Shown: positions 8,710-45,449, counted from the stretch's first letter. The stretch is 64,000 bases of DNA from Candidatus Aminicenantes bacterium (GCA_963729855.1 CAVSPT010000006.1:933428-997427); one strand, 5' to 3'. A program made the numbers and translations. Notes: generated from the sequence alone by a model not told the origin.

Positions 8710-10680
8710 TCAGGTCCGGGACGAGTATTTCAATTCGCGGAACGTCACGGTGAAGGCCGTCCCGTTCGTTCGATCCAGCTCGATCGCCGCCTCCAATTGT
8801 CCGGCCAGCAGATTCACGATCTGAAGCCCGAAGCTGTTCGCCTTGCGGAAATCCAGATCCTTCGGGAACCCGATCCCATCGTCCGCCACCCGGACTTCGA
8901 TCAGACCGCCCGGCCGGCGTTTCAGCCCGATCCGGATGACGCCGGCCCGGCTCTCCGGGAAGGCATGCTTGATGGCGTTGGAAATCAGCTCGTTCAGAAG
9001 CAGCCCGCAAGGCATGGCCGAGGCGATATCCAGGGTCACATCCTCGAATTCGGTTTCCAGCCGGACACAGCCGGGCTGGGCGCTGTAGGCCTGGACGAGG
9101 TGAAGCGCCAGGCTGTTGATATATCCGCCGAAATCGATCCGGGACAGATTGCCGGATTGGAAGAGCTTTTCATGGACCAGGCTCATGGAGCGGATCCGCG
9201 TCTGGGCCTCCTTGAAAACGCCGCGGCACGCGTCATCGGGACTATGCCCGACCTGGAGGTTGAAGAGGCTGGAGATGACCTGCAGATTGTTTTTGACCCG
9301 GTGGTGGATCTCCCGGAGAAGGACCTCTTTTTCCTGCAGCGAGACCCGGATTCCCTCCTCGGCCTGTTTGCGCACGATGGCCATGGCCACCTGCGAGGAG
9401 ACGAAAGAAAGGAATTCCAGCTCGCGCCTGCCGAAGCGGACCGTTTCCGCGTAGGATTGCACGACCATCACGCCGATCGTCCGCTCCCCGACGCGCAGGG
9501 GGACGCCCAGCCAATCCACGGAATTCTCGCCGATCAATTCGACGTCGCCCCGCCGGACAAGGCTCTCGAACACTTCCGGCGGCGCCAGCAGGGGCGCGCC
9601 CGTGCGCAGGACGTATTCGGTGAGTCCCCGCCCCGGCTTGCTCGGGAGGGGCGGTTCGTCATAGGGATCGACAAAATAGGGAAAGGAAATTTCGTCCTTG
9701 TCCGCGTCATAAAGGGCGATATAGAAGTTGTCGGCGGGCAGCAGAGCGCCGATCGAATCATGGATGGATCGGAACAGCTCGTCCAGCGAGACCGCCGAAT
9801 TGGCGACGCTGGCGATCCGGAAAATGATTTCCTGCAATTTCTCGGCCTGCTTGCGTTCGGTGATGTCGCGAACGATGCCCAGGAGGTGAGGCCGGCCTTC
9901 GATCTCGATCAGAGCGGCCGAGACCAGCCCATCTTTCAGGGCGCCGCTCTTGGCCCGAAAACGGGCTTCGAGATTTTCGACCACGCCGTGTTCCTGCAAG
10001 TCCGCGACCAGCCGCCGGCGGTCGTCCGGATCGTCCCAGATGTTCAGCTCGATCGACGTGCGGCCGACGATATCTCCTTCGGCATAGCCCATGATCTTGG
10101 TGAAGCCCGTATTGATCGAAACATACAATCCGTCGGCCAGGCGGTTGAGGCTGACGGCATCCGGGTTGGTGTAAAACGCCTTGCGGAATTTTTCCTCGCT
10201 GACGGCCAGCGCCGCCTCCGTTCTCTTGCGTTCCGTGATGTCGGTGACTGCGCCGATCCACTTCACGGGCTTCCCCGATTCATCCCGGACGACGGCGCCT
10301 CGATCCTGCCAATAGAGAAAAGTGCCGTCCTTCCGCCGCACACGGCACTCCACGGAATACGGCTCCTCGGACTTCAATTGTTTTTCAATCGCCGCCAGGA
10401 CACGATCCCGGTCCGCGGGATGGAGCAGGCTCGTATACCCCTCCCATGTCCGGGGGATTTCGTCGGGCTGGCAGCAGAGAAGTTCGTCCACCCGTCCGAG
10501 CCATTCCAGGCGCGAACTGAGATCCCATTCATAGATCAAATTCGTCGCTGATTCCGCGGCCAGGCGGTAGCGTAGGCTTTTTGCCCTTTCCTGCGCGAGC
10601 TCGGCTTTCAGGCGGGCGATTTCGGCGGCGGACGCACGGGCTTCTTCCTTCCCGGCTCTCTTTTTCGATTGATCGGACAA
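8710..10680 (-). CDS. Cytoplasmic PAS-PAS-GAF sensor histidine kinase (HisKA_2 type)
   Basis: 656 aa. The only available in-frame start is TTG 10680. N-terminal coiled coil, two PAS-like modules and a GAF-like module. H-box [20 protein letters not shown]. ATPase motifs [19 protein letters not shown] and NSFGLQIV. No TM helix. Confidence 0.8.
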
Positions 10681-10773: not shown

Positions 10774-11874
10774 TCATTCCGTCAACGGCCGCCTGCGGCG
10801 CAGGATGGCCGCCGTCCCGCCGATCACGCCCAGAAAATAGAGGGCGGCCCCTGCGTAGCGGAGCGGCAGGGCGGAAACGCCCGCTTCGCGGGACGCGGAA
10901 GGGCCGGCCGCGGGGAGCGGCACGGGGTCCCAGGGAAGGCCGTAACGGTCGGCCAGCCCCTTGACGTACAGAAGATGGATGATCGGAACACCCTTGGCGG
11001 CCATCGCCTGGATCAGGCCGCGGCGGCCGGGCGGCGGGATGAACACGTCGGCCGCGGGATTGAATCCCGGCCGGAGCTTCAGGACCTCGGAATCGACGCC
11101 CATGTTGACCCAGCTGCCGCCGACATTGACGAAGGCCATGATGGGGGCCGGCCCGGCCCGCTGCTCGAAAAGCCTCAGCCGCGCCCGCACGTCATCGGCC
11201 AGGGATTTTTCCTCGATCAAGGGGAGCCCCGCTTCGGCGATTTTCCGCCTCAGGAAATCCCGCCCTTCGGCCGTCATGTCCCTGCCGGCGTCCCCTTCTC
11301 CGCCTACGGACGCCGCCAGAAGCTTGGTATCGAGAACTCCGCTTCGCTTCAGGCAGGCGATCGTTTCCAGGCTCGTCCATCGCGGATCGTTCCCTCCCCA
11401 ATTCGAGGCCCCCAGGGAAAGGACGGGCAAAACCCGGACGTCCATGGCCCGGGCGGCGCAGAGGGTCGCGACGATGAAGCCCGGAAACGAGCTCGACGCG
11501 CTCACGGCCACGGCGTCACCGCGGCGGACTCCGGCTTCGCGGAACATCCGCACCACCGCCCCGGCAAACTGGGGATTGGCGGCCGTCCGCTTGGCCTCGA
11601 TCTGCCCGAGGGACGTGGTGATCGGAGAAGCCTCCACGCCCAGGAGCCCCGTCCGGTTAAGGTCGGTCCGTGGGTCGATGGGCACTCCGGCCGCCAGCCG
11701 GCAGGCCCGGACCGCATCCAGCGCCCGGTTCATCAGCCGGACGGCTCCGTCCTCGTCTTTGTCCATCATGCGGCCACCGGGGAGGATGAGCAGGAAAAGC
11801 AAAAAGAGCGCGCTCCAGAGGCCCATGGCGGAGACCAGGACGGCCGGCGACCGCGGGGAATGCCGGGTTTCCAT
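10774..11874 (-). CDS. Third gene of the pgsBC operon; poly-gamma-glutamate system protein-like (not CapA-like)
   Basis: 366 aa. ATG 11874 lies 1 nt after the pgsC stop. One N-terminal TM helix (LWSALFLLFLLILPG), then a large soluble domain. Its position and size match my recollection of the family that accompanies PgsB/PgsC in non-Firmicutes in place of PgsA/CapA. This was not verified by search. Confidence 0.5.
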   Translation of the reverse strand: METRHSPRSPAVLVSAMGLWSALFLLFLLILPGGRMMDKDEDGAVRLMNRALDAVRACRLAAGVPIDPRTDLNRTGLLGVEASPITTSLGQIEAKRTAANPQFAGAVVRMFREAGVRRGDAVAVSASSSFPGFIVATLCAARAMDVRVLPVLSLGASNWGGNDPRWTSLETIACLKRSGVLDTKLLAASVGGEGDAGRDMTAEGRDFLRRKIAEAGLPLIEEKSLADDVRARLRLFEQRAGPAPIMAFVNVGGSWVNMGVDSEVLKLRPGFNPAADVFIPPPGRRGLIQAMAAKGVPIIHLLYVKGLADRYGLPWDPVPLPAAGPSASREAGVSALPLRYAGAALYFLGVIGGTAAILRRRRPLTE

Positions 11875-11875
11875 C

Positions 11876-12307
11876 TCAGACCCGGAAAACGAGCCTGGCC
11901 AGGGCGGTCGTGACCGCCGTGGCCGTGGCCAGAGAGGCCAGGGTCAGCCAGAATTTCTGGCGAGCCAGAGTGTTGGCCAGCAAGCCGGGGACGATCCAGC
12001 CGATGACACGAAGATCGAGCGGGGCGGAAAACAATTTCGGCCAGAAGACAAGCCAGATCTGGCCGATCAGGCCCCCCAGAAGCAGCATGAAGACAAAGCG
12101 CCGGCGGCCGAAGAGAAGCAGCCTCGCCGACAGAAAGCGGAACGCCCCGAGCGCGAGGATGGCCGCTCCCAAGGTCGCCGCGATCCGCCAGGGCTGATCG
12201 GCGTAAAGGGCGAAATAGGCCGGGACGATGATCCCGCCCGGAAGGATCCCCGTGATTTCGACGTAGAGCAGGGCGACCGCCAGGCCGATCAGGATCGTGG
12301 TCGCCAT
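11876..12307 (-). CDS. pgsC: Poly-gamma-glutamate biosynthesis membrane protein PgsC/CapC
   Basis: 143 aa with four hydrophobic helices. MATTILIGLAVALLYVEITGILPGGIIVPAYFALY.. matches the CapC/PgsC pattern. ATG 12305-12307 overlaps the pgsB stop (ATGA). Only the last 143 codons of ORF-track 11876..13405 are used. Confidence 0.75.
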   Translation of the reverse strand: MATTILIGLAVALLYVEITGILPGGIIVPAYFALYADQPWRIAATLGAAILALGAFRFLSARLLLFGRRRFVFMLLLGGLIGQIWLVFWPKLFSAPLDLRVIGWIVPGLLANTLARQKFWLTLASLATATAVTTALARLVFRV

Positions 12308-13506
12308 CAGGCCGCCTCCCCGACGCGGTCCCAGAGATCGATGAGCGCAGCGCCCGCGCCGCCGATGTTGCCCATTCCGATGAACACCGCGGGCAGAGTC
12401 CCCGCCCGCATTTCGGCGGCGCCCATGATCCGGGCGGGGTCGACCCCGGCCACTCCGACGACGAACGGGCCCCGCGGGATGCGGCGGCCCAAGCGCCGGG
12501 CGGCGGGCATGGCCGGCCGCCCCACGACGAGGATCCCCGCGAAACCGGAGAAGAAACCCGCGCCGGCCGCTTCCAGCCACTGGCGGGTCCGGTCCTCCCG
12601 GTCCTCGCGAAGGTTCAGAATCCCGATCCGCCGCTCCGGCAAGCCGGGCCGGATCTCCGCCAGCCGGTCCAGGACGCGGCGGGTCGACTCGGGTTCGTTG
12701 GCGGCGAAAGCGCTCACGGCGTAGCGCGGCGGATCGGCGGGCCCGCCGTGCAGGCGCCTGATCCGGAGGGCGCCGAAGTCCGGGACGACCGCGTCCATTC
12801 CGGCCTCGGCCCGCTCGCGCCCGACCCCGAGCGTTTCGGCCGCGGCCAGGGCCAGGAGGCGATTCTCGGGGAACTCGAAATCGCCCCCGGGCCGGGAAGC
12901 GGTTTCGCCTCCCGGGACGCGGCCGGGAACGATCACGATCCGGGCGCCCTGCCGGCCGGCGGCGGCGTGGAAGGCCGGGTGGTCCTCGGCGGCCGGAACG
13001 AGGACCGTGCAGCCGGGCGCGATGGCCGCGCTCAGCGAGACGGCGACCGCGTCGCGGGTCCGGCCCATCTCTTCGCGGTGGTCGACGCGGGCGTTCGTAA
13101 TGACAAGGAGGTCCGGTTTCAGGATCCGGACCGCCTCGGCCCGCAGGCATTCCGGCCGGATGCTCATCATTTCGGCAACTAGGGCATCGACCCGGCCGCG
13201 CGCGGCGGTCCTCAGGACGCGCTTCTGTTCGAGGATGGAGGGCGGGCCGGTCCGGGCGATCAGGCGCTCCGATCCGTCCGTTCCGGACAGGGCGGGTCTC
13301 GATCCGGTCGTCTTGGCCAGGACGATCCGGCCGTCCCCGCGAAGGGCCGCGGCGATGAGGCGGGTCACGGACGACTTGCCTCGCGTTCCGGTCACGGCCA
13401 CGCACCGGGGGATGCGGCGCCGGGAGGCACCGAGGGACCGGTTCTCAGCCGACAGGAGGAGCAGGAAGCCGGTCAAAAGGGCCGACGCGGGAAGAAGTCC
13501 GTTCAC
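12307..13506 (-). CDS. pgsB: Poly-gamma-glutamate synthase PgsB/CapB (Mur-ligase-like amide ligase)
   Basis: Single N-terminal TM, then P-loop VAVTGTRGKSSVTRL, VAEMMSIRPE and LLVITNARVDHREEMG. The layout is as in CapB (about 393 aa). Start set to GTG 13506 (399 aa), because the ORF-track TTG 13572 lies inside the U-run of the upstream terminator. Confidence 0.8.
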   Translation of the reverse strand: MNGLLPASALLTGFLLLLSAENRSLGASRRRIPRCVAVTGTRGKSSVTRLIAAALRGDGRIVLAKTTGSRPALSGTDGSERLIARTGPPSILEQKRVLRTAARGRVDALVAEMMSIRPECLRAEAVRILKPDLLVITNARVDHREEMGRTRDAVAVSLSAAIAPGCTVLVPAAEDHPAFHAAAGRQGARIVIVPGRVPGGETASRPGGDFEFPENRLLALAAAETLGVGRERAEAGMDAVVPDFGALRIRRLHGGPADPPRYAVSAFAANEPESTRRVLDRLAEIRPGLPERRIGILNLREDREDRTRQWLEAAGAGFFSGFAGILVVGRPAMPAARRLGRRIPRGPFVVGVAGVDPARIMGAAEMRAGTLPAVFIGMGNIGGAGAALIDLWDRVGEAA

Positions 13507-13570
13507 GCCGATATTGTATTTTTTCTTCGGCCAAATGAACAGGCCCGAAAAGGCGGACCCGCGGCGGGCC

Positions 13571-13610
13571 AAAAAAAAAGAGGCGAAAGAGTTTGGGGCT
13601 CTTTCGCCTC
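13571..13610 (-). terminator. Rho-independent terminator (12-bp GC-rich stem, 7-nt loop, U9)
   Basis: Minus-strand RNA reads GAGGCGAAAGAG-ccccaaa-CUCUUUCGCCUC followed by UUUUUUUUU (plus-strand A-run 13571-13579). It lies downstream of the CheY-like gene and of a sigma-54-type promoter, 65 nt before pgsB. Confidence 0.65.
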
Positions 13611-13680
13611 CCCACTGAAAGGAAGAGAGTTGAAAAGTTTATGAAAGGCACTCGATAGGTGCCACTTCTGCTCTTAATCT

Positions 13681-13696
13681 TGCATATTTCGTGCCA
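13681..13696 (-). promoter_or_regulatory. Sigma-54 (-24/-12) promoter candidate upstream of the terminator/pgsB leader
   Basis: Minus strand TGGCACgaaatATGCA keeps GG-N10-GC and matches the consensus TGGCAC-N5-TTGCW. It lies in an AT-rich intergenic region. Confidence 0.55.
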
Positions 13697-13805
13697 TATT
13701 CGGATCGGACTTTTGAAACGATCCATCTCTGTAAACGGTTTTCATCCGGTCCGGAAACGGAAAATACCGCAAACAGAATTTACATGATGAAAAAAAAGTT
13801 TACGT

Positions 13806-14192
13806 TTAGAGGCTTTTCCCAAGGAATTCGTCCTTGGTCAGCAGGTAATCGATCGACCGGCTCAAGGCGTCCAGGTCGAGCGGCTTGGCGAAGAAATGGC
13901 CGATCCCCAGCCGGCTCAGCACGCCGGGATCGACGAGCTCGGCATGGGCGGAAATGAGGATGACCTCGCCCCGGTAGCCTTTGGCCCGGAGATCGGAGAC
14001 TAGCTCCACGCCGTCTTTGCCCGGCAGGCGCAGATCGGCAATAAGCAGGTCGAAGGCCCCGCTCTTGAAACGCTCCAGGACTTCCTCGGCGTCCTTGGCC
14101 GGATAAACCCGGTACTTTTTGTTCAACAGGAGGAAGAAGGTTTTGCGGATGGATTCTTCGTCGTCGACGAGGACGATTTTTTTGCCTAACAT
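13806..14192 (-). CDS. Single-domain response regulator (CheY-like receiver)
   Basis: 128 aa. VLVDDEESIRK.., phospho-acceptor context DLLIADLRLPGKDG, and a conserved K region (FFAKPLD). ATG 14192 with AAAGGA upstream. No output domain. Confidence 0.85.
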   Translation of the reverse strand: MLGKKIVLVDDEESIRKTFFLLLNKKYRVYPAKDAEEVLERFKSGAFDLLIADLRLPGKDGVELVSDLRAKGYRGEVILISAHAELVDPGVLSRLGIGHFFAKPLDLDALSRSIDYLLTKDEFLGKSL

Positions 14193-14230
14193 TTCATATC
14201 CTTTCTCAGATGACTGACGTCTGAAGATTA

Positions 14231-14246
14231 TGCAGGTTTTGTGCCA
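14231..14246 (-). promoter_or_regulatory. Sigma-54 (-24/-12) promoter candidate for the CheY-like gene
   Basis: Minus strand TGGCACaaaacCTGCA (GG-N10-GC), ending about 38 nt upstream of ATG 14192. Confidence 0.6.
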
Positions 14247-14348
14247 ACGCCCCGATCAAGAGATCAGGGGAAATTCCGGGGCCTGTTGTCCTCCCGAGAG
14301 GACGCCCGCCAAGGTAATTTACAGGAGCGGGTAAAGTCTCTTTGCGCG

Positions 14349-15683
14349 CTAAATCTCCAAGCTGTAATCCTTGATCTTCTTGTCCAGCGTCGGCCGGCTG
14401 ATCTGGAGGATCTGGCTGGCCTGCGTCTTGCTCCCCTTCACCGACGTCAGGACGTAGCGGATGTACTCCTTTTCCACTTCATCGAGCGAGGTCAGCGTCC
14501 GGGCGAAAAGCTTCTTGTCCTCGATGTCGACGGGCAGGTTCTCCTTCAGGACGATGTCGCCCTTGGCCAGGATGACCGCCCGGGTCAGGGCGTTTTCCAG
14601 CTCCCGGACGTTCCCCTTCCAAGTCAGATCGGTCAACATCTTCATGACCTCCGGCGGAACCTTGCGGACGTTCTTGCGCAGGTCGCGGTTGATCTTCTCC
14701 AGCAGATAGGCGGCCAGGTCGGGGATGTCCTCTTTGCGCTCGCGCAGCGGCGGCAGGTCGATTTCCACGACTTTCAGCCGGTAATACAGGTCCTCGCGGA
14801 ATTTGCCGGCCTCGATGAAGGCCCGCAGGCTTTGGTTGGTGGCGGCGATGATGCGGGCCTCGGTTTTCAGGACCCTCTCCCCGCCGACCTTCATGAAGTC
14901 CCGCGACTCGATGACCCGCAGGAGCTTGGACTGCAGGTTGGGCGAGACGTCGCCGATCTCGTCCAGGAACAGCGTGCCCTTGCCGGCGATCTCGAATTTG
15001 CCCTTGGTCTCGCAGTGGGCGTCGGTGAAGGCCCCCTTGACGTGGCCGAAGAGCTCGGACTCGAGCAGGGTGTCCTGGATGGCCGAGCAGTTGATGACGA
15101 TGAAGGGCTCGTCGCGGAAGGGGCTGTTGTAATGGATGGCCTTGGCCACGAGCTCCTTGCCCGTCCCGCTCTCGCCCTGGATGAGGACGTTGGTCCGCGT
15201 TCCGGCCACCGAGCCGATCAGCTTGAAGACGTCCCGCATGCGGGGCGAGCGGCCGATGAGGTTGTCGATCGTATAGTCCTTCTGCTTTTCCTGGATGAGG
15301 TAGCTGACCTTCTCTTCCAAGGCCTTGACCTGGAAGGCCTTCTCCACGGTCAGGTCGAGGGCCACGTAGTCGAGCGGCTTGACCAGATATTCGAAGGCCC
15401 CCAGCTTGACCGCCTCGACCGTCGTCTTCATGTCGTCGAAGGCGGTCATGATGACGACCGAAGCGGGATTTTCGTCCTCTTTCAGGCGGCGCAGGACGTC
15501 CAGGCCGTCCCGGTCGGGCAGGCGGATGTCCAGAAGAATGAGGTCGGGCCCCATTTCGGCCGCCCGGACCAGCCCGCTCTCGCCGTCCTCGGCCGTCTGG
15601 GCCTCGTATCCTTTCTTGCTCAGGTGGGAGGCCAGCGTTTTGCGGATGAGGGCGTCGTCGTCGATGATCAGAATGGACTTCAT
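14349..15683 (-). CDS. Sigma-54-dependent response regulator (NtrC-family enhancer-binding protein)
   Basis: 444 aa, ATG 15683 (ATGA overlap with the kinase stop). The ORF-track 777-aa version adds an out-of-context N-terminus read through the kinase gene. REC domain (LIIDDDALIRK, DLILLDIRLPDRDGL). AAA+ core (GESGTGKELVAKAIH, GAFTDA loop, TLFLDEIGD, RIIAATNQ). Fis-type HTH (SKTQASQILQISRPTLDKKIK). Confidence 0.9.
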   Translation of the reverse strand: MKSILIIDDDALIRKTLASHLSKKGYEAQTAEDGESGLVRAAEMGPDLILLDIRLPDRDGLDVLRRLKEDENPASVVIMTAFDDMKTTVEAVKLGAFEYLVKPLDYVALDLTVEKAFQVKALEEKVSYLIQEKQKDYTIDNLIGRSPRMRDVFKLIGSVAGTRTNVLIQGESGTGKELVAKAIHYNSPFRDEPFIVINCSAIQDTLLESELFGHVKGAFTDAHCETKGKFEIAGKGTLFLDEIGDVSPNLQSKLLRVIESRDFMKVGGERVLKTEARIIAATNQSLRAFIEAGKFREDLYYRLKVVEIDLPPLRERKEDIPDLAAYLLEKINRDLRKNVRKVPPEVMKMLTDLTWKGNVRELENALTRAVILAKGDIVLKENLPVDIEDKKLFARTLTSLDEVEKEYIRYVLTSVKGSKTQASQILQISRPTLDKKIKDYSLEI

Positions 15684-17137
15684 GGCAGGTCCTCGCAGGG
15701 CAGCAGGATTTCGAAGGCCGTTCCCGGCCCGCGATGGGGGACGACACGGATGGAGCCCTTGTGCTGTTCGATGATCTTGCGGGCGTTGGCCAGGCCAAGG
15801 CCGAAGCCCTGGGGCTTGGTCGTGAAGAAGGGTTCGAAGATGGTCTCCCAGTCCTTCTCGGGGATGCCGCAGCCGTTGTCCGAGATGCGGACGCGCAGCC
15901 GGCAGACGCCGCCCTGGTCGATCCGGGCGGCGGCGATGGACACCCGGCCCCCGGGCTCGACGGCCTCGGCCGAATTGCGCAGGACGTTGGCGAAAACCTG
16001 GCGGAGGCGGTCGCCGTCCACGGCGACTTCGGGCAGTCCGGGGGCGTAACGCCGCTCCACGGCGATCCGCTTCTCGGCGAAGGCGCCGCGGAGGAGCTTG
16101 ATGCTCTCGTCCAGGACCTGCTCGATGGCGAAGCGGTCCTTCTGCAGCTCGGAGACCCGGGTGAAATTGAGGAGCTCCTTGATGAAGCGCTCGATCTGGC
16201 CGATGCCTTCCTCGGACAGGGCCAGGTGCTCGTGCTCGATCTCGTCGATGTGCGGGCTGCTCCGGATCTTCTGGATGTTCAGCTTGACTGAGGTCAGGGG
16301 GTTGCGGATCTCGTGGGCGATGGTCACGGCCATCCGTCCGATCTGGGCCAGCTTCTCCGACTGGATGAGCTTCTTGTTGGTCGCCTCGATCTCCTCGAGC
16401 GTCAGGCGGAGCTTCTCGCTCATCTCGTTGAAGCGGCTGGCCAGGTGGCCGATTTCGTCCTTGGAATCGATGTCGATCTTGTGGGCGAAATCGCCGCGGG
16501 CGATGCGGACCGTGCCCTCGGACAAGCGTTTCAGGGGCCGAGTGATCCGGCGGGCCAGGACGGTCGCGCCCAGAGTGCCCAGCAGCAGGCCGGCCGCGCC
16601 GAGGAGGAGGAGGACCCGGCGGATCTTGCGGATCTCGGCCGGCAGGCGGGCCAGGGACAGGCCCAGCTTGACCGAGCCCCACCGGCTGTCCGAGCCCCGG
16701 TCGTAAATGGGGATCTCGATCTCCAGGATGCGGCGGAGGGCCTTGTTCAGAAGGACGTCCTTGGCCTGGATATAGACGCTTTTCGGACGGATATCGCCCT
16801 GGAGCTGGCTCTGGCTGTAAACGGCCCGTTCGGAGGCGATCTGGCGGTTATAGACGATCGGGGTGGCGTAGCGGTCGTAGATGACGATGTACAGCCGGTT
16901 CTCGTCGATCTGCTCGTCCACGCTGGACTGCAAGGCGTCGACGTCCCAGACCAGGAGCGAGCGGAGATTGGCCTCGGCCATGCTCCGGGCGAAGAGCAGC
17001 CCGCGGTTGGTGAATTCGTCGAAAATGGTGTTGACTTCGCGTCTCTCGACGACCCAGAGGACGGCCGCGACCAGGACGATGACCAGGGCGGCCGACCAGA
17101 TGGCGAAGCGCTTCTGCAGGGACAGCTGGACCATCAC
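15680..17137 (-). CDS. Membrane sensor histidine kinase (periplasmic domain, HAMP, HisKA, HATPase_c)
   Basis: Start is GTG 17137 or ATG 17134; both overlap the SBP stop (GTGATGG). TM1 (AIWSAALVIVLVAAVLWVV), a periplasmic region of about 150 aa, TM2, and HAMP (RPLKRLSEGTVRIARGDFAHKIDIDSKDEIGHLASRFNEM). H-box AVTIAHEIRNPLTSV. N/G boxes VLRNSAEA, DNGCGIP and GFGLGLA. Confidence 0.85.
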   Translation of the reverse strand: MMVQLSLQKRFAIWSAALVIVLVAAVLWVVERREVNTIFDEFTNRGLLFARSMAEANLRSLLVWDVDALQSSVDEQIDENRLYIVIYDRYATPIVYNRQIASERAVYSQSQLQGDIRPKSVYIQAKDVLLNKALRRILEIEIPIYDRGSDSRWGSVKLGLSLARLPAEIRKIRRVLLLLGAAGLLLGTLGATVLARRITRPLKRLSEGTVRIARGDFAHKIDIDSKDEIGHLASRFNEMSEKLRLTLEEIEATNKKLIQSEKLAQIGRMAVTIAHEIRNPLTSVKLNIQKIRSSPHIDEIEHEHLALSEEGIGQIERFIKELLNFTRVSELQKDRFAIEQVLDESIKLLRGAFAEKRIAVERRYAPGLPEVAVDGDRLRQVFANVLRNSAEAVEPGGRVSIAAARIDQGGVCRLRVRISDNGCGIPEKDWETIFEPFFTTKPQGFGLGLANARKIIEQHKGSIRVVPHRGPGTAFEILLPCEDLP

Positions 17138-18753
17138 GGTCTCTGGTCCTTCGGGTCCAGCCAGACGAAGCGGGTGTCGAGGTAGGAGAGGCCCATGGCC
17201 GGGATCTTCAGCCCGTGGACGCGGCCCTGGACGGCGAAACGCTCCTCGGAGAAGAATAGCGGCAGGGCCGGCACGTCCTGGGCCAGGATCCTCTCCATGC
17301 GGCGGAAGAGATCGACGCGCCGGGTCCAGCTTTTTTCCACATCGGCCTCCTCGTAGAGTTTGTCGAAATCCGGCGACGCGTAGCGGCAGGCCGAGCGGTT
17401 GAATTCCGAGCCCGACGTGAACAGCGGCTGGACGATGCTTTCGGCGTCGGGGAAATCCATCCGCCAGGGGACGAAGGCCAGAAACGGCTGCTTGACGTCA
17501 TGCAAGGCGGCCATCGAGCGGACAAAACGGACGGACACCGGAATTCCGACCGCTCCGAGCTGGGCCTCCATCTCGCGGCCCAGCTGGACGGTCGCTTCGG
17601 AGCGCGGAAGGGGGATGAAGCAGAGGAGCTCGGGAAATGACCGTTCCACGAAATACCCGAAATCGGAGAGGAGGCGGCGGGCCTTTCCGGGATCGCCCGA
17701 CAACAGGTCGTCCAAGGGAAAGAATCCCGGAAGTCCGGAGGGGATGAAATTGGCCGAGCTGCGCAGGGCTCCGGCAGGGCCGCCCCAAGCCAGGGCCAGC
17801 TTGTCCTTGTCGATGGCGGCGGCGACGGCCAGGCGGACCGCGGCGCTGTCCAGGGGAGGATTCTGACAGCTCATCATCAGGTACGTCATGTTGTAGAGCC
17901 CGCCCTGGACGATCTGCGACTTGGAGGTCGCCATCCGTTCGGACAGGAAAGGCATGACGTGGACGTCACCGTCCATGAACTGGTTGATGGAAAAATGAGG
18001 GCTGAATTCGACGATGTCTAGATAGGGCCGGCGGTCGTGGTAGCGGGGGAAGCGCTCCAGCCGGACGCCGACCACGTCCAGGAGGGGGCTGCGGACCCAA
18101 TACCCGAATTTGAACGGCCCCGTGCCCACCGGCTGCCAGAAGAAACTCCGGCCCTGGTCGAGGAGCAGGTCCCGGGGCAGGATCTTGCAGAAGCTCATGC
18201 TCAGGAGGTAAAGGGCCGAGACATAGGGGTTCTTCCACTGGATCTCGAAGACGAATTTCTCGGGGGCCCGGAATCCCGAGACCTCGTCGGCCTTGCCGTC
18301 CCAGAACTCCTGGGCCCCGGCCACCTTGTTGATGAACAACGGGGCGTAAGGCGACTGGGTGTCCCGACGGAGCAGCCGTTCCAGCGAGAACTTGACGTCC
18401 TGCGAGTCCATCTCCCGGCCGTGATGGAACATGACGCCCCGCTTCAGGATAAATGTCGTCCGCCGGCCGTCCTCGGAGATGATCCAATATTCGGCCAGGG
18501 CGGGGATGATGTCGAGCTTGGCGCTGAGGCGAACGAGGCCCTCGTAGAGCTGTTCCGTGGCAAACGTCCAGGAAGGGACGGCCGGGTCCAGGTTGGGCTG
18601 AAGCGGCCCGCCGTCCTCGCGGACACGCAGGACGCCTCCATATCTGGGCACGTCCTCGGAGGGGGCCGGGCCCGCCGATCCCGCGATCAGGCCGGACGCG
18701 AGAAGGACCGCCGATACGGCGATCGATCCCCGTTTGAGATGGCTTTTATTCAT
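17134..18753 (-). CDS. Periplasmic solute-binding protein, family 5 (DppA/OppA-like), without cognate transporter genes
   Basis: 539 aa. Signal peptide (MNKSHLKRGSIAVSAVLLASGLIAGSA). PRYGGVLRV, LAEYWIISEDGRRTTFILKRGVMFHHG and GTGPFKF are typical of SBP_bac_5. No permease or ATPase gene is adjacent; the stop overlaps the kinase start. Confidence 0.8.
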   Translation of the reverse strand: MNKSHLKRGSIAVSAVLLASGLIAGSAGPAPSEDVPRYGGVLRVREDGGPLQPNLDPAVPSWTFATEQLYEGLVRLSAKLDIIPALAEYWIISEDGRRTTFILKRGVMFHHGREMDSQDVKFSLERLLRRDTQSPYAPLFINKVAGAQEFWDGKADEVSGFRAPEKFVFEIQWKNPYVSALYLLSMSFCKILPRDLLLDQGRSFFWQPVGTGPFKFGYWVRSPLLDVVGVRLERFPRYHDRRPYLDIVEFSPHFSINQFMDGDVHVMPFLSERMATSKSQIVQGGLYNMTYLMMSCQNPPLDSAAVRLAVAAAIDKDKLALAWGGPAGALRSSANFIPSGLPGFFPLDDLLSGDPGKARRLLSDFGYFVERSFPELLCFIPLPRSEATVQLGREMEAQLGAVGIPVSVRFVRSMAALHDVKQPFLAFVPWRMDFPDAESIVQPLFTSGSEFNRSACRYASPDFDKLYEEADVEKSWTRRVDLFRRMERILAQDVPALPLFFSEERFAVQGRVHGLKIPAMGLSYLDTRFVWLDPKDQRP

Positions 18754-18774
18754 TAAGGAAACGATGAAATTTAG

Positions 18775-18790
18775 AGCAATCTTTATGCCA
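18775..18790 (-). promoter_or_regulatory. Sigma-54 (-24/-12) promoter candidate for the SBP-kinase-activator operon
   Basis: Minus strand TGGCATaaagaTTGCT (GG-N10-GC), about 22 nt upstream of ATG 18753. This implies a short leader with a weak SD. Confidence 0.5.
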
Positions 18791-18861
18791 GAAAGCCGAA
18801 CTGCTTTTCGGCCTGAAAAAAGCTCATTCCTGCCCGTCTACTCAAATAATCGAGTTTAATT

Positions 18862-18878
18862 TGTAAATTTATTTTACA
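18862..18878. promoter_or_regulatory. 17-bp palindrome TGTAAAtttatTTTACA, candidate enhancer (UAS)
   Basis: Perfect 6-bp arms with a 5-bp spacer, centred about 81 nt upstream of the -24 GG of the 18775-18790 promoter candidate. The half-site TGTAAATT recurs upstream of the other two nearby sigma-54 candidates. Confidence 0.35.
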
Positions 18879-43464: not shown

Positions 43465-45405
43465 CTATCTCCAGCGCGCAGAACCGCGGGAGCTCCGGCT
43501 CGAGGATGAGGAGGAAGACGACGAGCTGCGGGAATGGCCGGATCCGGACGATGAACGGGACGAAGAGCTGTAGCCGCGGGACGAAGACCTCGAACCGTCG
43601 CTCCGGGATGGAGCGCTGAAGGTGCGTGAAGGCGCGCTGTAGCTGCGCGCACGAGCTCCATACGAACGGGAGTCTTCATAGCTCCGGGAAGGGACGCTGG
43701 ACGGGCGGCTGTAGGAATTGGAGGAGCCGCTCGACCGGCCGAGCGAACCGGGGGACCCGTATTCGCGCAGGCCGGAGGAGCTTCGGGAGTATGAAGAGGA
43801 GCCGGTCACGCGCGACGGGAAGCTCCGCATCGTCGAAGACGCCCCATCGCCGGAACGGCCGGTCGTCGAACGCATGATCGTGCCGGACGATGTGGAGGAC
43901 CGCCCGTTGCCGCCATACTCGCGGATGCGCCGGCTATTGGAGGAGGCGGAGCCGTTTGCCGAAAGGCTCCGGCTGTTGAGGCTGCGGCTCTCGGCGATGT
44001 CTCGGTCGCGGATGATCCGCGAACCCGACGAAGAGATCGCGCCGGACCGGCCGCGCCCCATGGACGCGCCCAGTTCTTCCGTGCTCAGCCGCCGCCCGTT
44101 GCCCGCATAACCGCCGCCGACCGAGCGCAGGTTTTCCCGGCTCAGAACGGCTGCGGCCCGCGAAGAAATGCCGTCCGCGCGGTTGAGGCCCGGACGGATT
44201 TCGGGCTGATGGGCGCCCAGGTTGATCCGGTCGACGCGGCCGAGGAGACGGTCGGCGCCCAAGGCGGAGCGGTTGATGTTGCGGTCCCAAAGCCGGTTGC
44301 GGTCGACCACGGTCATGGTCCGGGCAAAATGCCGGAAGCTGTAGTATTCGCCGAACCGGTAGCGGCCGTAGAAGCGGTTGTTGTAGATGACGGCCGGATA
44401 GCCCCAGTAGCTCAGGGGACACCAGCCGATGTAATCGCCGTCGTACCACCAGTTCACCCAGGCCGGACCCCAGCCCCAATAGCTGGTCGGGATCCAATAC
44501 CAGCCCAGGCCGAGCCGCCAGCCCCAGCGGCCGTAATGATACGTGCACCAGCCCCAGGAATCCGAGGAGACCCAGGTCCAGCCGATGATGGGATACCAGA
44601 CCCAGCGGCCGTACGAGTACGGGCGCCAGTCGGAGTTGACGCCGCGCGGCACCCAGACATTCCCGTATTCCGCTTCGTTGACCCAGCTGCCGTTTTCGTC
44701 GAGTTCGGTCTCATAATCCGCATACTCGGCGGGCAGGTAGCTGCCGCCGGAGGTCCGGGGGGCGTAGGAGGCGTCGCGGCTTTCGTTCCAACCGCCGAAA
44801 TCGTCGCTCCGGGCCGGGAGGGCGCCCGGCGCGGACGTGAAGCGCCCGTTGGCGGCGCTGACCTGCTGTCCGTCCTCGACGGACACCGAGCCTTCCTCGC
44901 CGGCCGCCTCGGCCGAGCCCGAAATCACGCTGAACTCGGTTTCGCGGTTTTCCCGCACATCGACGCGGTAGGATCCGGCGGTCAGGAGATAGAACGACGC
45001 GTCCGGGGTATGGACTTCGAAGTTTTTCTCCCGATCGAGGGTCTGGACGCGCAGGAAGATGCTTCCAGCCAAGACGTGCAGCTTGGTCGGATCACCGTCC
45101 CGGCCGGGGAGATTGATCAGATCGACCTGGGTATCGTTGTCCAGTCGCAGGTAATTGCGGCGGCCGAGCTGGATCTCCAGGCGGCCGGCGCGGCTGCCGA
45201 TCTTGTCGCCTTGGACGACGACCAGGTTGATCTCACCTTTTTCATAGCCGAGGTCCTGGGCCCTTTGGACGTACACGTCGCCCTGGACATAGCTCATCCG
45301 AGTGTAGCTTCGATCATAATAAGCGGCGGATTGGCCGAAGGCCAGGAAGGGAAAGACCACGGCCAGCGCCGTCAGCGTGCCCCAAAGTCTCTTTAAGCTT
45401 CTCAT
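43465..45405 (-). CDS. Secreted FecR-domain protein with Trp-rich (DUF6600-like) module and long Ser/Arg-rich tail
   Basis: ATG 45405 with GAGAGGAGAAA upstream. Signal peptide (MRSLKRLWGTLTALAVVFPFLAFG). FecR-like beta region (YVQGDVYVQRA..GSRAGRLEIQLGRRNYLRLDNDTQV). Trp/Tyr/Gly-rich block (YGRWVWYPIIGWTWVSSDSWGWCTYHYGRWGW..). The C-terminal part, about 230 aa, is dominated by S, R and G. Confidence 0.7.
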   Translation of the reverse strand: MRSLKRLWGTLTALAVVFPFLAFGQSAAYYDRSYTRMSYVQGDVYVQRAQDLGYEKGEINLVVVQGDKIGSRAGRLEIQLGRRNYLRLDNDTQVDLINLPGRDGDPTKLHVLAGSIFLRVQTLDREKNFEVHTPDASFYLLTAGSYRVDVRENRETEFSVISGSAEAAGEEGSVSVEDGQQVSAANGRFTSAPGALPARSDDFGGWNESRDASYAPRTSGGSYLPAEYADYETELDENGSWVNEAEYGNVWVPRGVNSDWRPYSYGRWVWYPIIGWTWVSSDSWGWCTYHYGRWGWRLGLGWYWIPTSYWGWGPAWVNWWYDGDYIGWCPLSYWGYPAVIYNNRFYGRYRFGEYYSFRHFARTMTVVDRNRLWDRNINRSALGADRLLGRVDRINLGAHQPEIRPGLNRADGISSRAAAVLSRENLRSVGGGYAGNGRRLSTEELGASMGRGRSGAISSSGSRIIRDRDIAESRSLNSRSLSANGSASSNSRRIREYGGNGRSSTSSGTIMRSTTGRSGDGASSTMRSFPSRVTGSSSYSRSSSGLREYGSPGSLGRSSGSSNSYSRPSSVPSRSYEDSRSYGARARSYSAPSRTFSAPSRSDGSRSSSRGYSSSSRSSSGSGHSRSSSSSSSSSSRSSRGSARWR

Positions 45406-45433
45406 GGTTTTTCTCCTCTCACCCTTTCTATAA

Positions 45434-45449
45434 AGCAACTTCCGTGCCA
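45434..45449 (-). promoter_or_regulatory. Sigma-54 (-24/-12) promoter candidate for the FecR-like gene
   Basis: Minus strand TGGCACggaagTTGCT is a full match to TGGCAC-N5-TTGCW. It ends 28 nt upstream of ATG 45405, between the upstream terminator and the RBS. Confidence 0.6.

Follow-up and report, generated by a model that had tools for sequence, protein, structure and literature searches.

The closest described counterparts of the locus treated here are systems in which an NtrC-class activator turns on a sigma-54-dependent small RNA. In Pseudomonas, CrcZ is made from its own RpoN- and CbrB-dependent promoter, and also by processing of the transcript of the upstream gene, cbrB (PMC5113210). 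In Vibrio, LuxO that is phosphorylated on the aspartate of its receiver (REC) domain turns on the Qrr small RNAs, which are sigma-54-dependent, terminated and about 100 nucleotides (nt) long (PMC10162802), and in Enterobacteria the two-component, NtrC-class activator of the GlrK/GlrR (QseE/QseF) pair drives a sigma-54 small RNA gene, glmY, located beside its own operon (PMC4152352). Here we describe a locus of comparable layout in a 64,000-nt stretch of Candidatus Aminicenantes bacterium (GCA_963729855.1 CAVSPT010000006.1:933428-997427; hereafter the window, in which all positions are counted). Genes for a periplasmic solute-binding protein (SBP), a membrane histidine kinase, an NtrC-class enhancer-binding protein (EBP, here the activator) and a stand-alone receiver are accompanied by three -24/-12 elements, P1 before the SBP gene, P2 between the activator and receiver genes and P3 downstream of the receiver gene. 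We propose that this is a conserved Aminicenantes sigma-54 regulon, built around a ligand-sensing two-component system, in which P3 drives a small RNA, and we consider this model, taken as a whole, to be probable. It has the sensor kinase and NtrC-class activator of CbrA/CbrB-CrcZ, together with a small RNA gene downstream of the regulator genes, on the same strand and with a predicted RpoN- and activator-dependent promoter of its own; it has a periplasmic binding protein partnered with a membrane kinase, as in LuxPQ-LuxU-LuxO-Qrr; and its small RNA gene lies beside the two-component operon, as in GlrKR-GlmY.

Three candidate promoters, a shared upstream dyad and the accompanying module

A search of the window for the pattern TGGCAY-N5-HTGCW returned four matches against an expectation of 0.16 from shuffles. 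Three of these are P1, P2 and P3 on the minus strand, and in each the GG and GC are exactly 10 bp apart, which is the sigma-54-type arrangement; the T at -15 is absent in P2 and P3 (CTGCA and ATGCA), as it is in their orthologues. Upstream of the three lies the octamer TGTAAATT, of which there are exactly three copies in the 64 kb (18862-18869 on the plus strand, 14316-14323 and 13777-13784 on the minus strand), where 0.20 would be expected in whole-window shuffles and 0.24 if only the 3.7 kb of AT-rich segments are counted. The distance from the start of its hexamer to the T of the TGG is 88, 77 and 88 nt for P1, P2 and P3, respectively. A sequence-only reading of this DNA had placed three minus-strand sigma-54 candidates that keep GG-N10-GC at these positions, with the octamer about 75-90 nt upstream of each and rare for such GC-rich DNA, and on all of these points it holds. 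It had also pointed to an inverted TTTACA at 13735-13730, which does not pair with the half-site at 13784; it is part of a weak third P3 site (13746-13730) that is common to the window and its nearest relative.

The functional unit is apparently a 17-bp dyad, YGTAAA-N5-TTTACR, with the octamer as its strong half. Six dyads with two or fewer mismatches occur in the window and five of them are at P1-P3; the sixth, at position 347, is intragenic with no promoter nearby and was set aside as a regulatory site. Across 1.02 Mb we find about 150 dyad-like sites, some 125 of which are 46-167 nt upstream of a -24/-12 element, and the distances between dyad and promoter peak at 57, 77, 88 and 97 nt, which therefore places the dyads on one helical face. 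Tandem dyads are 20-23 bp apart, and the symmetry, phasing and spacing all fit the enhancer, or upstream activator sequence, of an NtrC-class activator.

Both the promoters and the dyad are retained among 80 orthologous loci, which were retrieved with the activator protein and all derive from Aminicenantes-type metagenome-assembled genomes (MAGs; 74-95% identity). A strict -24/-12 match is found before the SBP gene at 60 of 71 loci and between the activator and receiver genes at 71 of 75. A dyad with at most two core mismatches is present upstream of 62/63 P1 sites (98%), 64/72 P2 sites (89%) and 50/62 P3 sites (81%), whereas among windows taken at random the figure is 1.9%, or 7.2% for AT-rich ones, so that the shared motif expected upstream of the sigma-54 sites is indeed enriched there (81-98% against 2-7%). 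The shuffles, the expectation for AT-rich segments alone and the random-window controls together rule out chance or AT-richness as the source of the motifs. Each promoter has its own pattern of sites: P1 orthologues have a single near-perfect dyad at 77 or 88-90 nt, P2 orthologues one or two strong YGTAAA half-sites at 76-79 and 96-100 nt, and P3 orthologues a dyad at 57, 77-80 or 85-89 nt. In most P2 regions (L001-L080) a further conserved element, TTTCCCCTGA, is found at a constant distance of about 27 nt before the P2 TGG; it is unlike a site for integration host factor (IHF).

The gene order SBP-kinase-activator-receiver is kept in essentially all 80 loci, with the receiver gene downstream of the activator in about 75. 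In the window the stop codon of the SBP gene overlaps the kinase start, and that of the kinase overlaps the activator start (ATGA). The SBP reached no NCBIfam equivalog cutoff, and no permease genes of a cognate ATP-binding cassette (ABC) importer adjoin it; the upstream FtsX/MacB genes are of another type. The activator carries REC D52, Walker A GESGTGKE, Walker B LFLDEIG and an HTH_8 domain, and aligns over its full length to Aquifex NtrC4 (4.5e-101), its nearest solved structures being Aquifex NtrC4 and NtrC1, followed by LuxO. No named EBP equivalog (AtoC, NtrC, ZraR, LuxO or GlrR) scored above its NCBIfam curated cutoff, the best being AtoC (459.6 against 714), with NtrC at 426.5 against 558.6, LuxO at 367 against 800 and GlrR at 313 against 763. 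The receiver has a complete phospho-acceptor set (DD10-11, D53, S81 and K103).

The gene identities given in the sequence-only reading are correct by Pfam and NCBIfam, and the activator is, as it stated, the only EBP in the window and is encoded inside the block; across the loci it is always co-encoded with dyad sites. The two regulatory links that it drew from this arrangement, autoregulation through P1 and control of the CheY-like receiver gene through P2, find support in the conservation of promoter and dyad at P1 and P2. A sigma-54/EBP circuit with a shared upstream site, conserved across the 80 loci, is thus supported by the comparison of sequences.

At P1, the closest relatives resemble the window in that the element lies about 22 nt from the SBP ATG and leaves an 11-nt leader without a Shine-Dalgarno sequence. 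In many other loci (for example L042, L049, L058, L060 and L073) a sigma-70-like TTGCAT-N17-TATCAT/TATTAT is present downstream of P1 in the 5' leader, which suggests dual promoters at P1 in those loci; the window and its closest relatives are without this element.

The fourth match to the promoter pattern (45449-45434), which is located before a gene unrelated to the module, serves as an internal specificity control. No dyad was found upstream of it, and therefore another EBP must serve that promoter.

The candidate small RNA downstream of P3

About 100 nt after P3 the terminator scan places an intrinsic terminator, a 15-bp GC-rich stem followed by U9. The predicted transcript comprises a 5' hairpin (13663-13647), the seed TTCAACTCTCTTCCTTTCAG (13634-13615), the terminator stem-loop (13613-13577) and U9 (13579-13571), and in the predicted fold the C/U-rich stretch is unpaired between the small 5' hairpin and the terminator. 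The same unit, composed of dyad, -24/-12 element, short transcript with a C/U-rich stretch and GC hairpin, recurs on the strand of the receiver gene in at least 61 of the 80 loci. It lies directly after the receiver gene or 1-5 kb away, and retains its own promoter and dyad even when kilobases separate the two. Its neighbours vary and include genes for an ARMT1-like phosphatase, a class V aminotransferase, ornithine carbamoyltransferase (OTCase), a convergent extracytoplasmic function (ECF) sigma factor (L024) and a convergent AcrB (L037). In four loci (L002, L005, L006 and L007) no RNA is apparent near the module, yet it is encoded elsewhere in the genome.

The RNAs can be sorted into lineage-specific classes whose cores differ but are always pyrimidine-rich: CUCUCUUCCUUUC in the class of the window, CCCUUCCAUAACCCUCCUUCUU in the largest class and CCUUUUCUUCUCUC in a third. 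The conserved stretch is 18 nt long in class A, against about 37 nt in class B. When 13 class A sequences were aligned and folded as a consensus, UUCAACUCUCUUCCUUUC came out unpaired and without any variation. The two hairpins do vary, with A-U pairs of the terminator stem replaced by G-C in a compensatory manner, and the indels have lengths not divisible by three. A scan of 185,579 genomes for the exact seed, a pattern for which about 70 chance matches would be expected, returned 59 matches. Twenty of these are in Aminicenantes-type MAGs, one per genome, and all twenty have a -24/-12 element 39-74 nt upstream of the seed, nineteen with a hairpin as well; the 39 matches in other taxa have neither promoter nor hairpin. 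Furthermore, a covariance model scored the window copy at 105.6 bits, recovered class A copies on which it had not been trained (E = 8e-7 and 3e-5) and gave marginal matches at the expected places in class B loci. No second copy was found in the window. The Rfam search gave no known RNA family, as nothing matched at gathering thresholds and the best permissive match, mmgR/suhB, reached 18.9 bits against 41. We therefore put forward the P3 transcript as a candidate for a conserved, free-standing small RNA of a new family without an Rfam entry. As no terminator was found between the receiver gene and P3, the RNA could also arise from the P2 transcript.

One lineage is organised differently, with a -24/-12 promoter, then a tiny hydrophobic open reading frame (MSKLLML...FFLFF), then a C/U-rich RNA, CACCUUUUCUUCUCUCAUAG, with a hairpin (L022:10019, L027:11724, L031:10118, L042:9387, L050:12580, L058:9469, L060:7945 and L075:10233). 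Most of these promoters are without a dyad.

The window-wide duplex scan placed its two best non-self sites inside genes. Its sole match to a start region is the FecR/LipL45-like gene behind the fourth sigma-54 promoter, whose ribosome-binding region pairs with the seed at -22.3 kcal/mol (top 0.05% of windows); we take this as a lead only. Feedback of the RNA on its own module was rejected by a negative lineage-matching test, and the strong class A energies at the activator start region are an artefact because the G-rich terminator arm was included in the seed segment.

A transcript from P3 might be real and still not act by base-pairing. Like CrcZ and GlmY, it could serve to titrate a protein that binds RNA, or it could be mainly the 3' end of the receiver mRNA, with a role in stability or processing. 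The great length of the conserved stretches in both classes would suit such a role, as would the continuous DNA between the receiver gene and P3, the double origin of CrcZ, which has a sigma-54 promoter to itself and is also processed out of the cbrB-crcZ transcript (PMC5113210), and the outcome of the duplex scans, which gave no convincing target. However, each RNA has a single C/U-rich motif, unlike the repeated protein-binding motifs of sponge RNAs; this motif is anti-Shine-Dalgarno-like and predicted to be unpaired; and the RNA is preceded by a promoter and dyad of its own even where the receiver gene is kilobases away. We judge this explanation unlikely and retain the base-pairing small RNA as the more reasonable reading of the P3 cassette.

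Table 1. Features of the locus and of its surroundings in the window.
Feature	Position	Strand	Basis and remarks
P1 upstream activator site TGTAAAataaaTTTACA	18862..18878	-	perfect 17-bp dyad, 88 nt upstream of TGG
P1 -24/-12 element TGGCATaaagaTTGCT	18775..18790	-	pattern search; predicted start near 18764, ~11 nt before SBP ATG 18753
Family-5 periplasmic solute-binding protein, 539 aa, signal peptide	17134..18753	-	Pfam SBP_bac_5 3e-48
Membrane histidine kinase, HAMP-HisKA-HATPase_c	15680..17137	-	Pfam/NCBIfam
NtrC-class enhancer-binding response regulator, REC-AAA+-HTH_8	14349..15683	-	Pfam, structure matches, motif reading
P2 upstream sites CGCAAAgagacTTTACC (14346-14330) and TGTAAAttaccTTGGCG (14323-14307)	14307..14346	-	2 mismatches each, centres 23 bp apart
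Conserved TTTCCCCTGA element	14264..14273	-	between upstream sites and P2
P2 -24/-12 element TGGCACaaaacCTGCA	14231..14246	-	pattern search; predicted start near 14220; 28-nt leader, GAAAGGA, ATG 14192
Stand-alone CheY-like receiver, 128 aa	13806..14192	-	Pfam Response_reg
P3 upstream sites CGTAAActtttTTTTCA (13804-13788) and TGTAAAttctgTTTGCG (13784-13768)	13730..13804	-	1 mismatch each, 20 bp apart
P3 -24/-12 element TGGCACgaaatATGCA	13681..13696	-	pattern search; predicted start near 13670
Candidate small RNA, ~100 nt	13571..13670	-	terminator scan, fold, alignment, covariance model
pgsB upstream region, TACAAT -10-like box 13518-13513	13504..13567	-	box 6 nt before GTG 13506
pgsB (12307-13506), pgsC (11876-12322), gamma-PGA system protein (10774-11874)	10774..13506	-	NCBIfam
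Fourth -24/-12 element, near-consensus TGGCACGGAAGTTGCT	45434..45449	-	29 nt before Shine-Dalgarno and ATG of 646-aa FecR/LipL45-like protein; region 45405-45449

P3 and the neighbouring pgs operon

Downstream of the RNA lie genes of the poly-gamma-glutamate (gamma-PGA) system, whose products all score above the cutoffs of TIGR04012, TIGR04011 and TIGR04332; a cytoplasmic histidine kinase with PAS-PAS-GAF-HisKA_2 domains (8710-10680, minus strand) is encoded directly downstream of them. P3 had previously been taken as the promoter of a pgs leader, and the circuit as one that controls gamma-PGA synthesis. Neither claim is supported. The transcript from P3 is predicted to end about 100 nt on, and its cassette lies beside unrelated or convergent genes among the loci in which it recurs, most copies not being followed by pgs genes. 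The region upstream of pgsB forms a homology block of its own, starting directly behind the RNA terminator. Of the 41 loci retrieved with PgsB, only five have the RNA upstream of pgsB. A TATAAT or GATATAAT box precedes the start by 30-80 nt in most of the 41, and the sole -24/-12 element seen before pgsB is the P3 that belongs to the RNA cassette. Several genomes keep the RNA beside the module but carry pgsB on a different contig or at a distance of many kilobases, L010 with L082 being an example.

How the parts come apart is seen in L001/L081, the nearest relative, whose activator is 95% identical. Three blocks are collinear between it and the window, namely P2 with the receiver gene, the P3 core with the RNA (131 nt, 89% identity) and the pgsB upstream region with its start. 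In L001 two genes lie between the blocks, one ARMT1-like (0.93 kb) and one of the DUF5916/CBM9 type (2.3 kb). It is the latter that precedes the 65-nt pgsB upstream region there, which is 2.3 kb from the RNA and has no RNA before it. The pgsB block is independent of the RNA and has a -10-like box of its own, and in the window it comes after a terminator; as a general rule, therefore, P3 is not the promoter of pgs. Nor is the RNA consistently upstream of the operon, as a cis-acting leader or attenuator of pgs would be. We treat the pgs genes as neighbours of the module, not as demonstrated members of its regulon.

In the rival model P3 would be the pgs promoter, the roughly 190 nt to pgsB its leader and the hairpin a conditional attenuator, so that the circuit would control gamma-PGA directly. 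The terminator of the window RNA, which has the same orientation as pgsB, does end 65 nt ahead of the start of that gene, the RNA is directly upstream of pgsB and always co-directional in about ten genomes, and L084 has a dyad between the RNA and the pgsB -10 box. Against this, the 15-bp GC-rich stem with U9 is a strong terminator of constitutive type, for which no alternative anti-terminator fold was found, and most genomes have the RNA beside other genes, some of them convergent (AcrB in L037, the ECF sigma factor in L024). Furthermore, pgsB elsewhere has a TATAAT box and no -24/-12 element while the RNA stays by the module (L010/L082, L001/L081), and the block upstream of pgsB is conserved independently of the RNA. 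Direct control from P3 is accordingly quite improbable, and the terminated small RNA remains the preferred product of this promoter.

The near-perfect dyad of L084, TGTAAAtttttTTTACG, is located at about 2790-2806, between the RNA terminator and the pgsB GATATAAT box. It is the one case seen in which an activator site is so placed that it could have a direct effect on a promoter of pgsB. The GTG start of pgsB in the window lies 6 nt after TACAAT, and in-frame substitutions upstream of it, relative to L081, are mostly non-synonymous; this suggests a leaderless or near-leaderless pgsB mRNA with a GUG start, which would be unusual. No seed pairing site was found in the pgsB start regions, and the pgsB start was rejected as a seed target, having little or no leader and no purine-rich site in this clade.

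A proposed model of the regulon and its relation to known systems

We propose the following model. The orphan periplasmic family-5 binding protein would report its ligand to the membrane kinase, which would then phosphorylate the NtrC-class activator on D52, as the intact motifs suggest. Phosphorylated activator would bind the YGTAAA-N5-TTTACR dyads on one helical face, 57-108 nt upstream of the three -24/-12 promoters; this step is proposed because of the conservation, phasing and co-occurrence of dyad and activator. Through P1 it would switch on its own SBP-kinase-activator operon in positive autoregulation. Through P2 it would switch on the stand-alone receiver, whose most likely role is to provide feedback as a phosphate sink or as a connector; once induced, the receiver could compete for phosphoryl groups or provide a link to another pathway. 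Through P3 it would switch on a terminated small RNA of about 100 nt, whose invariant, unpaired, C/U-rich and anti-Shine-Dalgarno-like 18-nt stretch most likely pairs with purine-rich ribosome-binding regions elsewhere in the genome. The pgs operon would be transcribed from its own sigma-70-type promoter and would receive from P3 at most some terminator read-through.

Several observations weigh against this model. On the side of transcription, neither the window nor the 1.6 Mb of loci retrieved contained an RpoN box; the loop of the activator (residue ~217) reads GAFTDA instead of the canonical GAFTGA, a G to D change at position 5 that leaves the GAFT core in place; and P1 in the window is about 22 nt from the SBP ATG, with an 11-nt leader that has no Shine-Dalgarno sequence. 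The link between this particular activator and the dyad is one of association. On the side of the RNA, its start, its ends and the efficiency of termination are all predicted, and covariation is modest, with double changes in 4 of 18 pairs. No target was identified in the window duplex scan or in the start regions of the module: when seeds were tested as duplexes against the SBP, kinase, activator and receiver start regions of matched and mismatched lineages, no preference for the matched lineage was seen (at most 0.5 kcal/mol after centring). Lastly, the RNA adjoins pgsB, co-directionally, in the window, L009, L024, L029 and probably L032, and likewise in L084, L085, L088, L096 and L098. These roughly ten genomes span several RNA classes, each with an intact terminator and a -10-like box in between, and such recurrent synteny may represent a functional association.

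That the dyad is bound by another regulator, with all three promoters depending on an EBP other than the co-encoded one, is very improbable, for although the fourth -24/-12 promoter shows that other EBPs must exist in the genome and the link between activator and dyad is associative, the dyad accompanies the module in every lineage and is present before the module's own operon too, it is spaced and helically phased relative to the -24 element as EBP sites are, and the fourth promoter is without it. The co-encoded activator is thus kept as the protein that would bind the dyads of P1, P2 and P3.

Aminicenantes are abundant in anoxic sediments and peat; to our knowledge they have no cultured representative and nothing is known of their gene regulation. 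In the literature searched we found no paper on sigma-54 in Aminicenantes and none on control of gamma-PGA by RpoN. The locus offers, from sequence alone, a complete and testable module, with a sensor, a kinase, an activator, a 17-bp site, three promoters and a small RNA of a new family whose seed is defined, and the dyad and seed can be used to list the regulon and the RNA targets in complete MAGs. It would extend the design in which a two-component activator drives a sigma-54 small RNA well beyond the Proteobacteria. The design itself is already known and will not surprise specialists; what is new is the small RNA family. The analysis also corrects an attractive but unsupported inference about capsule regulation. 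A bolder form of the model, which we hold to be rather unlikely, would make the RNA the main output of a phylum-wide, ligand-sensing sigma-54 switch, the functional equivalent in uncultivated Aminicenantes of LuxO-Qrr or CbrB-CrcZ, in which the anti-Shine-Dalgarno-like seed reprograms the translation of many mRNAs, with its recurrent, co-directional position before pgsB reflecting a real coupling to gamma-PGA, for example by partial read-through; if true, this would be the first sigma-54- and small RNA-linked control of gamma-PGA.

Comparison with the described systems shows where the resemblance ends. The pgs genes correspond to Bacillus pgsBCAE (capBCAD), the same biosynthetic genes, with PgsB and PgsC above the NCBIfam cutoffs. 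Gamma-PGA in Bacillus is controlled by DegS-DegU, ComP-ComA and SwrA at a sigma-A promoter, and pgsB here likewise has an apparent sigma-70-type promoter of its own. The GlrKR-GlmY arrangement differs in that GlmY is a decoy for the protein RapZ and that its accessory component is the lipoprotein QseG, where the present locus has an SBP; the GlrR equivalog score of the activator is 313 against a cutoff of 763. The Lux system has LuxO, the third-best solved-structure match to the activator, though the activator's score for the LuxO equivalog, 367, falls far short of the cutoff of 800. Unlike the Lux system, the locus has neither a LuxU-type phosphotransfer protein nor a hybrid kinase, its SBP is of family 5 and not of the LuxP type, there is one RNA copy per genome, and both the seed and the DNA site are different. 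As in cbrB-crcZ, no terminator separates the upstream gene, here that of the receiver, from the promoter of the RNA. The window system has three things beyond those of CbrAB, namely an SBP sensor gene, a gene for a stand-alone receiver and autoregulation through sigma-54, and the CbrB site differs from the dyad. CrcZ belongs to another phylum and is unrelated in sequence; it is about 400 nt long with repeated A-rich motifs and sponges Hfq/Crc, whereas the RNA of the window is about 100 nt long with one C/U-rich motif. By these comparisons the closest systems, CbrAB-CrcZ, LuxPQ-LuxO-Qrr and GlrKR-GlmY, are all proteobacterial, and what they appear to have in common with the Aminicenantes locus is their logic and none of their sequences.

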